A DNA stretch of 62,947 nt from Stellaceae bacterium (GTDB lineage Bacteria; Pseudomonadota; Alphaproteobacteria; ATCC43930; CGMCC-115725). This document shows positions 10,540-19,162 of this stretch, one piece after another. Below the pieces are notes generated by a model. The model was given only the letters and a program-made list of their open reading frames with translations. It made no database searches and was not told where the DNA came from. The stretch spans positions 1 to 62,947 of the forward strand of contig DASUIE010000154.1 in NCBI GenBank assembly GCA_036273175.1, in the 5' to 3' direction. The position numbers were made by a program, and so were the translations under genes. Position 1 is the first letter of the stretch. Each line of letters starts with the position of its first letter.

Positions 10540-12048
10540 TTACTGCAGCTTCACCCCCTGCGGGCGGATCAGCCCGTCGGGGTACGGGGTAAAGCCTTGC
10601 AGCTTCGCGGTCGCGGCGTAGAGCCATTTCGGGTGCCAGAGATAGATCACCGGGCGGTCCTTGAGGATGTGCTCGGCGACGATTTTGTACTGCGCGATAC
10701 GGGCGGTCGGATCGCCGGCGAGACGCGCCGCGTCGAGGGCGGCGTCGACATCCTTGTTGCAGTAATGCGTCGTGTTGAGCGCCGGCGGGCCCTTGCACGA
10801 GACGAAGTTGTAGATGTTGCCGTCGGGGTCGGTGCGGCCGCTCCACCCGATCATAAAGGCCTGGTAATCGCCCTTGACCGCGAAGTTGAGCGCCGAGGCG
10901 AACTCGGTGGCCCGGATCTTGATGTCGAATCCGGCTTCTCCCGCCATCGCCTGCACGACCTGCGCGGCGCGCTCGGTCTCGGGGTTGGTCGGCACCATCA
11001 TCTCGATCGACACCTTGGGATGCCCGGCGGCGGCCAGCAGAGATTTGGCCTTGGCGACATCGCGCCCCGGAACCGGGAAATCCTTGATGTAGTACTTGTT
11101 GCCGGGCGGGTCCCATTGGTTGCCCGGTTGGAACTCGCCGTTGAAAACCACCTGGTTTAGCGCCTTGCGGTCGATCGAGGCCTCGAACGCCTCGCGCACG
11201 CGCGCGTCCTCGCCGAGCGGATTCTTGGCCCGCTCGCCGTTGTTGAGATTGATCGTGATGCCCTGGTAGGCGAGCGAGGTGATCGTCGACAGCTTGAGCC
11301 GGCTGTCCTTGCGGACGTTTTCGAGATCGGTCGCGGCAACCCGCTCGATCAGATCGAGCGAGCCGGATTGCAGGTTGGCGAGGCGCACCGTCGAATCCGC
11401 GATCGGCAGGAAGACGACCTTGTCGAAGTGGATCTGGTCCTTGTTCCAATAGTCGGCGAATTTTTCGAGGACGATCCGGTCCTGCGCGACCCGCTCCACG
11501 AACTTGAACGGCCCGGCGCAGACCGGATGGGCGGAGAAGTCCGTGCCCTCCTTCTCGGCGGCGGTCGGCGAGACGATCATCCCGGCACGGTCGGTCAGCG
11601 CGGCCAGCAGCGGCGCCGAGGGCTGCGACAGCACCAGCTTGACCGTGTTGTCGTCGATGACCTGCACTTCCTTGACCGCGCTGATCTCGGCCTTGCGGTT
11701 CGAACCGGGCAGCTTCAGATGGCGTTCGATGCTGTACTTGACCGCGGCGGCGTTGAAGGGCGTGCCGTCCTGGAACTTGACGCCCTGGCGCAGGTGGAAG
11801 ACGAGCCCCTTGTTGTCGTCCACATAGTCCCATGAGGTCGCGAGCTGCGGGACGATGTCGAGCTCGGGGCTGATATCGACAAGCTTGTCGCAGAGCGAGG
11901 CGAAAACGATGCGGCCGACATAGGTGCGCGCGAGCGTCGGGTCCAAAAGGTCGGGGTCTTCCGCCAGCCCGATCCGCAGCGTCTGCGCGCTCGCGCCGCC
12001 CGCCAGCAGGAGAATGCACGCGGCGGTCGCCAGAATTCGTCGTCTCAT
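10540..12048 (-). CDS. ABC transporter substrate-binding protein, family 5 (peptide/nickel/opine type)
   Basis: The start [27 protein letters not shown] has a signal peptide and sits at the ATGA overlap with the upstream ATPase gene stop (12045-12048). The body resembles DppA/OppA-like binding proteins. Confidence 0.85.
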
Positions 12049-13124
12049 ATCGGCCTCCTGTCGATTTCCGCCACTTCCGGGCGGTCGAAATATTGCTGCA
12101 AGCGGGCGAGCCTGGCATCGGCGGCGCCCGGGTCGGCGACGGTGACGGCGGCCGGCAGTTCGGACCAGAAATGGCAAGCGGTCGCGTGCCCCTCGCCGTC
12201 ATCGGCGAGCGCCGGGTCGTCGACCGAGCAGCGTTCGCGGGCGTAGGGGCAGCGCGTGTGAAAGCGGCAGCCCGAGGGCGGCGCCAGCGGGCTCGGGATC
12301 TCGCCCCCGAGCAGCGCCCGCTCGCGCCGCAGCGCCGGGTCGGGGATCGGCACGGCGGCGAGCAGCGCGCGCGTATAGGGGTGACGCGGCGTCGCGAACA
12401 GCCGAGCCGCCGGCGCGGTCTCGACGACGCGGCCGAGATACATGACCGCGATCCGGTCGGCGACATGGCGGACGACGGCGAGGTCGTGGGCGATGAACAG
12501 CAGCGACAGGCCGAACCGCCTCTTCAGCGCCTGCAGCAGGTTGATGATCTGCGCCTGGATCGACACGTCGAGCGCGGAGACCGGCTCGTCGCAGACGAGG
12601 AGCTTGGGGTTGGCGGCGAGTGCGCGGGCGATGCCGATGCGTTGGCGCTGGCCGCCGGAGAATTCGTGCGGATAGCGCCGCGCCTGCCCCGGCCTCAACC
12701 CGACCAGGCTCAAGAGTTCGGCGACGCGCCGGTGCCGTTCGGCGGACGGAACGGTGCCGTGCAGCGCCAAAGGTTCGGCGATAGCGTCGCCGACGGTCAT
12801 GCGCGGGTTCAAGGAGGCATAAGGGTCCTGAAACACCATCTGCGCCTTGGCCCGCAGACGACGGAGCTCGGTGCCGGTCAACCCGCGCACGTCGCGCCCG
12901 GCGAAGCGAATGTCGCCCTCATCCGCCTCGATCAGCCGCAGCAGGACGCGGCCGAGGGTCGACTTGCCGCAGCCCGATTCACCGACCAGCCCCAAGGTCT
13001 CGCCGCGACCGATTTCGAGGCTGACCCCATCGACCGCGCGCACCGCGGCGCGACGCCGGCCAAGCCAATCCCGCACCGGAAAGTGCTTGACGACATCGCT
13101 CGCGGCAAGAAGCGCCCCGGTCAT
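12045..13124 (-). CDS. peptide-type ABC transporter ATP-binding protein (DppF/OppF-like)
   Basis: Walker [10 protein letters not shown], signature [12 protein letters not shown], Walker [13 protein letters not shown]. The C-terminal oligopeptide-transporter domain carries [14 protein letters not shown]. Confidence 0.9.
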
Positions 13125-17527: not shown

Positions 17528-17939
17528 TGTCGCGCTTCACGATTTCGACTGTCCCGGCGGCCGGGTCGACGCGCACGGTGTCGCCGGTGCGGATCAGGTC
17601 GGTCACGTCGCTTTCGAAGCGATCCACCATCGTCATCCCGGCCAGCGCGGCGCCCTGCGCCAGGATCGGATTGACCCGGTTGAGGACGAGGGCAAGCGGC
17701 GCCACGTTCCGTGCGGCCATTTCATGCAGCATCCAGGCCGTCGCGACGCCGCCCTTGGCCTGGTCGAGGACCAGGATGCGGTCTTTGTAGCTCTGCCCGG
17801 CGAGCGCGTGGCTGGGGCGCGAAAAGGTGCCGGCCTTGCGGTCGAGGTCGTAGCGGGCGCTGAAATTGTCCTTGGCGACGAGCGCGACGCCGGTCACCGC
17901 GGGGCCGATCCCCGGATGGCATTTGAGCAGAGGCGGCAT
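17520..17939 (-). CDS. aconitase X swivel-domain small subunit (DUF126)
   Basis: 139 aa. The pattern ...LVAKDNFSARYDLD...GQSYKDRILVLDQAKGGVATAWMLHEM... resembles DUF126/AcnX small subunits. The start shares 1 nt with the stop of the DUF521 gene (TGATG). Confidence 0.8.
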   Translation of the reverse strand: MPPLLKCHPGIGPAVTGVALVAKDNFSARYDLDRKAGTFSRPSHALAGQSYKDRILVLDQAKGGVATAWMLHEMAARNVAPLALVLNRVNPILAQGAALAGMTMVDRFESDVTDLIRTGDTVRVDPAAGTVEIVKRDNG

Positions 17940-19162
17940 CAGACGATCCGCCCGGCGACGGCCGAGTCGACGCAGCGTGCCAGGCTCGCCAGGGTCGGCT
18001 TGTAGCCGTAGCCGCCGATGATATTGGTAAGCTTGGCCGAATTGGTCAGCAGCCGGGTCCAGCCATTGGCCGCGGCGAGCTCTCCGGCATAGCTCTGGTA
18101 GAAGCAGATGCCGGCGGCGACCATCGCGCCCGAGGCCTCGATGCGGGCGGTGAGGCCCATGCGGTCGGCGGCGGATTTGATCTCGGGCGAAGTCGCGACG
18201 AGCAAGGTCGTGTCGGCGTGGACATGGCGTCCGTCGAGCGCCTCGGCCACCTCGGCCATCTCGATCAGCGACAGCTGCGGGGCGGCGAAGACCACGACGT
18301 CGACCTTGTCGCCCTTGGCCTCATAGGAAGCGAGGAAGGCGTCGATTTCGGCGCGGCCGATCGCGGCCGCCGCCGCCGCGCACTCAGCCGGCTCGGGGGT
18401 AACGCCGGACATATGGAACAGCGCGACCGAACCGTAGCTCGCCATCGCCGCGCCGAAATGCTTGAGCGCGTCGGAGCCGGGCGGCGTCTCGATCCCCTCG
18501 ACCAGCGGCACGGTCCAGTAGGAGCCGCATTCCCGGCCGACAATCCCACCGAGCGCACCCCATTCGCTGAGGTCGCGCGGCGCCGCCGTGACGCGGAAGC
18601 GATGCGTCGGCCGGCGCGCCGCGTCGAGATGGTAGCCGTAGCGCGGGGTCCGGCCGGTCAGCCCGGCGGCGAGCGCCGAGGGACCGCCCTCGAAATTGCT
18701 CCGCGCGCCGAACACGCTGTTCGAATAGATGACGACGCCGGTGTCGCCCATCGCCAGGTGCTCGCCGCGCACCGGCGGCAGGATCGTCTGGTAGTTGATG
18801 CAGGTATCGGTCATCAGCACGCCGAAGGCGCGGAACGCGGCGATCGCCCTCGCCTCCAGCGCCGCCATCGCGTCGGTTTGGCCGAGCCGCTTGTAGACCG
18901 CGAAATCGAGGCCCCGCGGATCGGTGATGGTCGGCACGCGCACCCGCCGCTCGCTCTCCGGGAGCGCGGCGAGGCGTTCGAGGAAAGCAACACCGGCCTC
19001 GCCGAGGCTTTCGGTGTCGGCCATGATATGCGCCTGCGACACCGGCACGAAGTCGGCGGCATCGAAGAAGTCGCCAACCTGGATCTGGTGCTCGATCGCC
19101 CAGCGCCGCGCTTCGCCGTACTCGCCGGCGAGCATCGCCCGCTCCTCGTCGTTAAGCTGCAC
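17939..19162 (-). CDS. aconitase X catalytic large subunit (DUF521)
   Basis: 407 aa. MQLNDEERAMLAGEYGEARRWAIEHQIQVG...VSQAHI... is a typical DUF521 N-terminus. The start is GTG. Confidence 0.8.
   Translation of the reverse strand: MQLNDEERAMLAGEYGEARRWAIEHQIQVGDFFDAADFVPVSQAHIMADTESLGEAGVAFLERLAALPESERRVRVPTITDPRGLDFAVYKRLGQTDAMAALEARAIAAFRAFGVLMTDTCINYQTILPPVRGEHLAMGDTGVVIYSNSVFGARSNFEGGPSALAAGLTGRTPRYGYHLDAARRPTHRFRVTAAPRDLSEWGALGGIVGRECGSYWTVPLVEGIETPPGSDALKHFGAAMASYGSVALFHMSGVTPEPAECAAAAAAIGRAEIDAFLASYEAKGDKVDVVVFAAPQLSLIEMAEVAEALDGRHVHADTTLLVATSPEIKSAADRMGLTARIEASGAMVAAGICFYQSYAGELAAANGWTRLLTNSAKLTNIIGGYGYKPTLASLARCVDSAVAGRIV

Follow-up and report, generated by a model that had tools for sequence, protein, structure and literature searches.

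What do a split aconitase X (AcnX), a DUF3830 protein, a ferritin-like diiron protein, a hydrolase of the γ-glutamyltransferase (GGT) family and parts of a peptide-type ATP-binding cassette (ABC) importer do side by side on one strand in the genome of a soil alphaproteobacterium of the Stellaceae? Their genes lie in a stretch of 62,947 nucleotides (contig DASUIE010000154.1 of assembly GCA_036273175.1, hereafter the window), and an earlier reading made from the sequence alone had seen in them an eight-gene operon for an undescribed catabolic pathway. We are moderately confident that they represent a lineage-restricted, functionally linked enzyme module whose core is an atypical AcnX heterodimer (large subunit AcnXL, small subunit AcnXS) together with a cytoplasmic GGT-fold Ntn (N-terminal nucleophile) amidohydrolase. 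The module is probably catabolic, and our confidence in any specific substrate is much lower. Around the core, the accessories are variable: an oxygenase (the diiron protein here, a Rieske oxygenase with a RidA-family protein in one relative), DUF3830, a small cupin, a family-III coenzyme A (CoA) transferase and Dpp/Opp-type ABC parts. As for the eight-gene pathway first proposed, its genes are intact, co-directional and recurring, but only AcnXL, AcnXS and the GGT-like gene form a constant core.

Co-occurrence of the homologues in other genomes had been named beforehand as one of the points on which the proposal could fail, and such co-occurrence was found. The search used three anchors, namely DUF3830 in a genome scan of 80 species, the diiron protein in metagenome contigs, and AcnXL in four long contigs (81-87% identity). 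Twenty-two contigs contain a diiron homologue with an identity of 80% or more and extend past it in both directions; of these, AcnX, DUF3830 or the GGT-like gene was found in 18, AcnX and GGT together in 13, DUF3830 in 11 and ABC parts in 3. All four AcnXL-anchored contigs carry the GGT-like gene, three carry DUF3830 and one the diiron gene. The same eight-gene array, with 81-95% amino-acid identity, is present in two relatives (L001 and L172), and the source names of close homologues indicate that the related contigs are probably Stellaceae (NCBI: Allostellaceae, Rhodospirillales). Three chromosomal settings were observed: between epimerase/ArsC genes and fumarase (the window, L001 and L169-172), between MinCDE and RNaseH/APH genes (L084, L173-175), and beside GatCAB/RuvX (L083). 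Because the flanks differ between loci, the AcnX-GGT pairing has survived relocation. The internal order changes as well, from AcnXL-AcnXS-DUF3830-diiron-GGT to cupin-AcnXL-AcnXS-diiron-DUF3830-GGT or CoA-transferase-AcnXL-AcnXS-diiron, so that DUF3830 stands on one side of the diiron gene or the other, and in relatives the opposite strand carries an inserted cyclase or MBOAT gene. The diiron gene is absent from L173 and L175, while in L174 a Rieske oxygenase (456 aa) and a RidA-family protein (10728-12502) follow AcnXS at the position occupied by the diiron gene in other relatives. This looks like a non-orthologous replacement of the oxygenase step, and the RidA protein would fit an enamine or imine product, although it is a single case. 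What is conserved is AcnXL-AcnXS together with the GGT-like gene; a cupin, DUF3830 and an oxygenase often accompany them, and the diiron gene is frequent but dispensable. The accessory genes (cupin, Rieske, RidA, CoA-transferase and cyclase) received no specific name from NCBIfam. The cyclase gene encodes about 415 amino acids with a guanylate/adenylate-cyclase domain, lies on the opposite strand beside the diiron gene or AcnXS (L002, L083, L097, L169-171, L173; 23 of the 84 diiron-anchored loci) and is not present in the window.

Several observations weigh against a linked module. The supporting contigs are all fairly close relatives (AcnXL 72-98% identical), and part of the co-occurrence may be inherited synteny. 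No AcnX gene lies within 10 kb of the DUF3830 orthologue in any of the 80 other species (65-78% identity; loci L003-L082), and for diiron homologues at 71-78% identity neither AcnX nor DUF3830 or GGT neighbours were found in any of 19. At 84-86% identity the diiron gene still occurs alone in L002 and L166-168. Since the opposite-strand cyclase gene interrupts the array in L169-171 and L173, where it splits AcnX/diiron from GGT/ABC, the single operon is not a conserved feature. No DppB/C-type permease was found anywhere in the 63-kb window by tblastn with the permeases of a related operon (L026). Finally, the AcnX pair lacks the canonical base, which makes the chemistry assigned to it a guess.

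Could the locus then be a mosaic of unrelated genes (a strongly conserved resident diiron gene, the AcnX pair, a floating DUF3830 and a GGT/ABC remnant), chance neighbours within one bacterial family? We think this rather unlikely. It would accommodate the close relationship of all supporting loci and the solitary diiron genes of L166-168, as well as L002, where the same epimerase/ArsC flank encloses only a CoA-transferase and the diiron gene. It would also suit the variable DUF3830 contexts over 79 species, in which no neighbour is common to more than 15 loci, and a fragmentary transporter which consists of ATPases and binding protein in the window but of binding protein and permeases in L007. 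Mere neighbourhood does not, however, explain why AcnX and GGT stay together across at least three chromosomal settings and through internal reshuffling, why overlapping start and stop codons join AcnXL/AcnXS/DUF3830 on one side and GGT/ATPase/ATPase/binding protein on the other, or why L174 fills the oxygenase slot from another family. A chance juxtaposition, first drawn from the DUF3830 scan with its 0 of 80 species having AcnX, was dropped on the recurrence seen in the diiron- and AcnX-anchored contexts.

The functional core can be read residue by residue, beginning here with the AcnX pair. Both of its Pfam domains (PF04412 and PF01989) score above the cut-off, which places it in the family. 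The best PDB match of AcnXL is TkAcnX (7CNR, E = 3e-52), and E is 1e-33 for the At enzyme; at the level of the fold the alignment is full length. Like the characterised At and Tk enzymes, the pair has both Pfam domains, two cluster cysteines and the equivalent of Lys530, and it is made of split subunits from overlapping genes. Only two activities are known for AcnX, and PMC8184944 explicitly leaves the bacterial subclasses IIc-IIf without an assignment. The cluster ligands are Cys273/508/510 in the At enzyme and Cys110(L)/283(L)/342(L) in the Tk enzyme, the general base is Ser70 (At) or Ser62(S) (Tk), and Asp203, Cys273, Cys508, Cys510, Lys530 and Tyr534 are the At substrate and cluster residues (PMC8184944). 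In the window protein, Fe-S ligands Cys121 and Cys353 are kept, whereas the positions of the third ligand are occupied by Ala294 and Tyr355 in 17 of 17 orthologues. Gly64 of AcnXS aligns with the general-base Ser62(S) of TkAcnX; it belongs to the motif AKGGVATAW and is conserved in 25 of 25 orthologues, two of which have single substitutions elsewhere in the motif. Compared with the At cis-3-hydroxy-L-proline (C3LHyp) dehydratase, Ser70 is replaced by Gly64, Asp203 by Met47, Cys510 by Tyr355 and Tyr534 by Ile, and only Cys273, Cys508 and Lys530 are kept; the replacements do not vary among the orthologues. Compared with mevalonate-5-phosphate dehydratase (Type IIb, Tk), Cys283 becomes Ala294 and Ser62(S) becomes Gly64 while Cys110 and Cys342 are kept, and the organism of the window is a bacterium. 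The landmarks of both characterised activities fail; the pair fits the unassigned subclasses and is most likely a member of one of the uncharacterised bacterial IIc-IIf of PMC8184944. Of the AcnX-type dehydration that had been proposed, the family assignment holds, but dehydration itself is uncertain with the general-base serine replaced by glycine in 25 orthologues and one Fe-S ligand gone.

The second member of the core, the GGT-like protein, is about 60% identical over its full length to PDB entry 6J3A. Its sequence has no signal peptide, and 6J3A is leaderless too, so that the leaderless character ascribed to it in the earlier reading is borne out. As in the E. coli and Bacillus GGTs, we find an Ntn-hydrolase fold, the autoprocessing nucleophile Thr413 and the oxyanion pair G494-G495 (GTPGG motif), both kept and invariant in 22 orthologues. 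In contrast, the positions that bind the γ-glutamyl group are Gln81, Gly433, Arg451 and Ile454 (Met in three) across these 22 orthologues and 6J3A. In E. coli these residues are Arg114, Asn411, Gln430 and Asp433, which contact the α-carboxylate and α-amino groups (roles from the E. coli and Bacillus structures). The protein thus differs from the canonical, periplasmic GGTs with a leader and an Arg, Asn/Glu, Gln/Glu, Asp set, and it scores 266 against a cut-off of 357.85 with the NCBIfam GGT model TIGR00066. Its closest known systems also include non-canonical members of the family, namely class IV cephalosporin acylase (2NLZ) and the oxamate amidohydrolase HpxW, and the unannotated structure 6J3A, of which 6J3I is the Thr-to-Ala variant; no published description of either 6J3A or 6J3I was found in the literature search. 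An HpxW-like oxamate amidohydrolase was considered because DUF3830 is often near ureide or hydantoin genes, and was rejected: the protein is only distantly related to 5HFT (E = 5e-23), which we take to be HpxW, and the window has no purine genes. Judged from its sequence, the GGT-like protein is probably a cytoplasmic Ntn amidohydrolase of the GGT fold with a non-canonical pocket and a non-γ-glutamyl substrate. The de-glutamylation step of the original proposal is accordingly unlikely, all four γ-glutamyl-binding residues being replaced and TIGR00066 remaining below its cut-off.

These residue changes bear directly on a more conventional explanation, in which the cluster would carry out canonical C3LHyp chemistry together with γ-glutamyl (glutathione) chemistry. 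AcnX Types I and IIa are indeed C3LHyp dehydratases (PMC5144071, PMC8184944), the GGT Pfam family is matched, and the best NCBIfam match of the binding protein is GsiB, but that match scores 196 for a cut-off of 594, and AcnXL reaches 199 bits with the C3LHyp-dehydratase equivalog NF051439, whose cut-off is 700. No proline-pathway genes are nearby, and the GGT equivalog model fails in the same way. Because the active-site residues of both AcnX and the GGT-like protein have changed, the hydroxyproline and de-glutamylation readings are not supported by the sequences, and we regard this explanation as very improbable. More generally, no enzyme of the cluster exceeds an NCBIfam equivalog cut-off. 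Across the cluster, the catalytic residues are under purifying selection: Thr413 and the Gly-Gly pair in the GGT-like protein, Cys121 and Cys353 in AcnX, and the six diiron ligands.

These six ligands are E109, E139, H142, E189, E219 and H222, with the motifs E139xxH142 and E219xxH222. With its two E...ExxH motifs spaced by 30 residues, the diiron protein resembles AurF, R2lox, the cyanobacterial aldehyde-deformylating oxygenase (ADO) and PaaA, and it passes the Pfam AurF model. The third histidine of AurF, which we take to be His223, a seventh ligand four residues before the second ExxH, is here Val215, invariant in an alignment of 30 close homologues. A profile of 40 diverse homologues searched against the PDB retrieved R2lox at 3e-9, ADO at about 1e-6 and AurF at 0.09. 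The protein therefore departs from the AurF/CmlI N-oxygenases both in having six ligands instead of seven and in a profile nearer to R2lox and ADO. Its AlphaFold2 (AF2) model is poor (pLDDT of 56, from a shallow alignment), and Foldseek with this model gave weak matches to ADO, AurF and PaaA, all with E > 1e-3, which is support at the level of the fold only. The AurF/R2-like label given to the protein can be kept for the fold and for the two E...ExxH pairs, but not for a third histidine or for proximity to AurF itself. An exact look-up of the window protein sequence returned no record. The best 120 of at least 8000 scored homologues are 83-95% identical, so that the protein is far more conserved than its neighbours, and it is also found in unrelated gene contexts.

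More distant relatives of the diiron protein suggest a different kind of substrate. In a library of representatives at 50% identity, homologues at 43-54% identity are the C-terminal domain of thioester-reductase proteins with AMP-binding, PP-binding and NAD_binding_4 domains; four such fusions (P0246, P0247, P0250 and P0266) have about 1400 amino acids. Two other homologues at 45-46% identity (P0265 and P0271) are fused to ABC1 atypical kinases. In its domain composition the former is similar to a carboxylate reductase that would supply a diiron enzyme acting on aldehydes, and the fusions tie the family to substrates of the acyl or aldehyde kind; nothing relevant on reductase-diiron fusions was found in the literature. 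From this one could propose that the cluster handles an acyl, aldehyde or lipid-like substrate, possibly as a CoA thioester, instead of a peptide, the diiron protein being the key enzyme and AcnX (de)hydrating an acyl intermediate. The proximity of R2lox, which binds a fatty acid, and of ADO by profile goes in this direction, as do the acyl-activating enzymes and MBOAT among the neighbours of diiron homologues and the family-III CoA-transferase that precedes the AcnX or diiron gene in L002, L083 and L119. We nevertheless find this proposal quite improbable. Genes for a CoA-transferase, a ligase or a reductase are absent from the window, the diiron gene is dispensable for the AcnX-GGT core, the transporter is of the peptide/opine type, and the AF2 model is too poor for an analysis of the pocket.

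DUF3830 has a better model (pLDDT of 80), for which the best Foldseek match is 3KOP (E = 8e-8, TM score of 0.79) despite an identity of only 21% and no sequence similarity by phmmer. The next matches, with TM scores of about 0.7, are to the cyclophilin-like domain of the Pictet-Spenglerases KslB and McbB. No mention of DUF3830 was found in the literature searched. In the DUF3830-anchored scan, only L007 and L053 share the GGT or diiron gene; the commonest other neighbours are an M20 amidohydrolase of the carbamoylase/allantoate type, an amidase, a hydantoinase, PuuE and uraD/HIUase, each in at most 13 of 79 loci, and they may point to a function in the metabolism of ureides or of hydantoins and amides. 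Because of these variable neighbours, and because none of the 80 species has AcnX nearby, DUF3830 is a floating gene, loosely attached and not specific to the cluster.

The transport genes are also a variable part of the module. They resemble those of Opp/Dpp/Gsi importers, with a family-5 binding protein having a signal peptide, two oligo_HPY ATPases and ATGA overlaps. Of the full Opp/Dpp set (a binding protein, two permeases and two ATPases), the window contains the binding protein and the two ATPases only, so the peptide-type importer seen at first in the sequence is there without its permeases. Locally the importer is incomplete, and it must either borrow permeases from elsewhere or be decaying. 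The nearest structures to the binding protein are 5U4O, GsiB/YliB, AgaA (which binds agropinic acid) and DppA, none of them close enough to name a ligand. Dpp-type transport genes adjoin the module in the window, L001, L105, L121, L125, L169-172, L175 and L007. Their composition differs: L007 has DUF3830, GGT, binding protein and two permeases in a row, without ATPases, and in L175 permease genes and three genes for binding proteins converge on the module, again without ATPases beside it. In L169-171, the binding protein is followed by a PIN/PhD toxin-antitoxin pair and then by a permease gene. In the window, an MNT/HEPN pair is found at the same junction; it lies outside the pathway, yet it sits exactly where permease genes would be expected and are lacking. 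The transporter operon may have been broken up in connection with the insertion of toxin-antitoxin genes, and in L001 this junction has no such pair.

The organization of the window genes agrees with the description first made of them: the eight minus-strand open reading frames between 10540 and 19162 have the positions, junctions and families proposed, the latter verified with Pfam (Table 1).

Table 1. Positions and sequence support of the genes of the cluster and of the features flanking it in the window
Feature	Position	Strand	Length	Support or remark
AcnX large (catalytic) subunit, AcnXL	17939-19162	-	407 aa	Pfam PF04412, 374 bits
AcnX small (swivel) subunit, AcnXS	17520-17939	-	139 aa	Pfam PF01989 AcnX_swivel, 82 bits
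DUF3830 cyclophilin-like protein	17114-17527	-	137 aa	Pfam PF12903, 97 bits
Ferritin-like diiron carboxylate protein	16000-17064	-	354 aa	Pfam AurF PF11583, 67.6 bits (cut-off 29.6)
Leaderless GGT-family Ntn hydrolase (GGT-like)	14111-15931	-	606 aa	Pfam PF01019 G_glu_transpept, 375 bits
DppD/OppD-type ABC ATPase	13121-14110	-	329 aa	Pfam ABC_tran + oligo_HPY; OppD subfamily 377 bits, below cut-off
DppF/OppF-type ABC ATPase	12045-13124	-	359 aa	Pfam ABC_tran + oligo_HPY; OppF/DppF models 406-411 bits
Family-5 periplasmic solute-binding protein	10540-12048	-	502 aa	Pfam SBP_bac_5, 298 bits
MNT-like nucleotidyltransferase / HEPN toxin-antitoxin pair	9821-10521	-		Pfam NTP_transf_2 + HEPN; MntA antitoxin model
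Divergent intergenic region, AcnXL start to ArsC-family gene	19163-19237		75 nt	Sequence
ArsC-family gene	19238-19576	+		Upstream of AcnXL
LysR gene	20770-21714	As cluster		Upstream, beyond the 75-nt spacer and ArsC

All eight frames are intact, tightly spaced and full length when compared with their homologues. Five of the junctions between these co-directional genes overlap or have 0 nt: AcnXL and AcnXS share 1 nt (17939), AcnXS and DUF3830 share 8 nt (17520-17527), the GGT-like gene abuts the first ATPase gene (14110/14111), and ATGA overlaps join the two ATPases (13121-13124) and the second ATPase to the binding protein (12045-12048). The two remaining ones are short gaps, of 49 nt between DUF3830 and the diiron gene (17065-17113) and of 68 nt between the diiron and GGT-like genes (15932-15999), and both contain purine-rich ribosome-binding sites. 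AcnXL starts with GTG, preceded at 7 nt by GGAG, and its N-terminus aligns with that of TkAcnX, while the ATG at 12048 yields the signal peptide of the binding protein. An end of the transcript in the gaps would have spoken against the operon, and no terminator-like site was found in the sequence of either of them; across the region, the count of such sites equals the shuffled expectation. From this layout, the eight window genes are likely to be transcribed as one unit from the 75-nt divergent region. This spacer is the sole room for a cluster promoter; no sigma-70 consensus was found in it, and no Rfam element, riboswitch or leader RNA was found at E<=0.1. It was correctly noted from the outset that no regulator gene lies inside the cluster; the LysR gene is upstream of it.

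Beyond the ArsC-family gene, an epimerase gene lies upstream in the orientation of the cluster, and downstream the MNT/HEPN pair is followed by a convergent fumarase. Farther away, the window contains on its minus strand (3457-6293) an ABC system of the branched-chain amino-acid type, composed of two ATPases similar to LivG/F and a binding protein of the Leu/Ile/Val type (translations judged by eye), and at 6307-7874 thiolase-like and ChsH2-type OB/zinc-ribbon genes which match genes of L001 past fumarase, MFS and DinB. In the 21.9-25.9 kb region, presumably on the plus strand, tblastn detected an ABC ATPase domain twice, at 23.3-24.0 kb and at 25.2-25.8 kb. These are consistent with the 1199-aa fused ABC_membrane/ABC_tran exporter plus cupin that L001 and L172 have upstream of the cluster.

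Returning to the module built on AcnX and the GGT-fold amidohydrolase, a possible order of events can be drawn. A small amide or peptide-like compound would be captured by the family-5 binding protein and taken up. The GGT-like enzyme would then cleave its amide bond through Thr413, this bond being other than a canonical γ-glutamyl amide, and the oxygenase would hydroxylate the carbon skeleton. Finally, the AcnX pair would catalyse a (de)hydration or an isomerisation. Its Fe-S centre would be coordinated by Cys121, Cys353 and probably Asp140, and its base would be one other than the usual serine. We advance only tentatively the full form of this idea, namely a catabolic route, as yet undescribed, by which an imported soil compound with an amide linkage would be broken down and which would combine a new serine-less AcnX subclass (KGG motif, two-Cys cluster), a GGT-fold amidase devoid of γ-glutamyl recognition and an interchangeable diiron or Rieske hydroxylation. 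No published pathway with this gene combination was found in the literature searched, in agreement with the initial statement that no described pathway unites these four families; nothing relevant on DUF521/DUF126, the domains of AcnX, was found under these names either. The novelty is that of a new arrangement and of new subfamilies within well-known superfamilies, not of a new kind of system.

If such a route exists, each of the three enzymes would represent a new activity in its own superfamily. The AcnX subclass without the canonical base, strongly conserved, with at least 8000 scored homologues and abundant in soil metagenomes, is a target for a third AcnX chemistry, and its GGT-fold partner, which has a solved relative in 6J3A, gives a second handle on the pathway. 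The gene context also names the set to be co-expressed, AcnXL, AcnXS, GGT, cupin and DUF3830, with the diiron gene and the ABC parts as optional members. Finally, the fusions of the diiron family to carboxylate-reductase-like modules point to an unexplored aldehyde or acyl chemistry.

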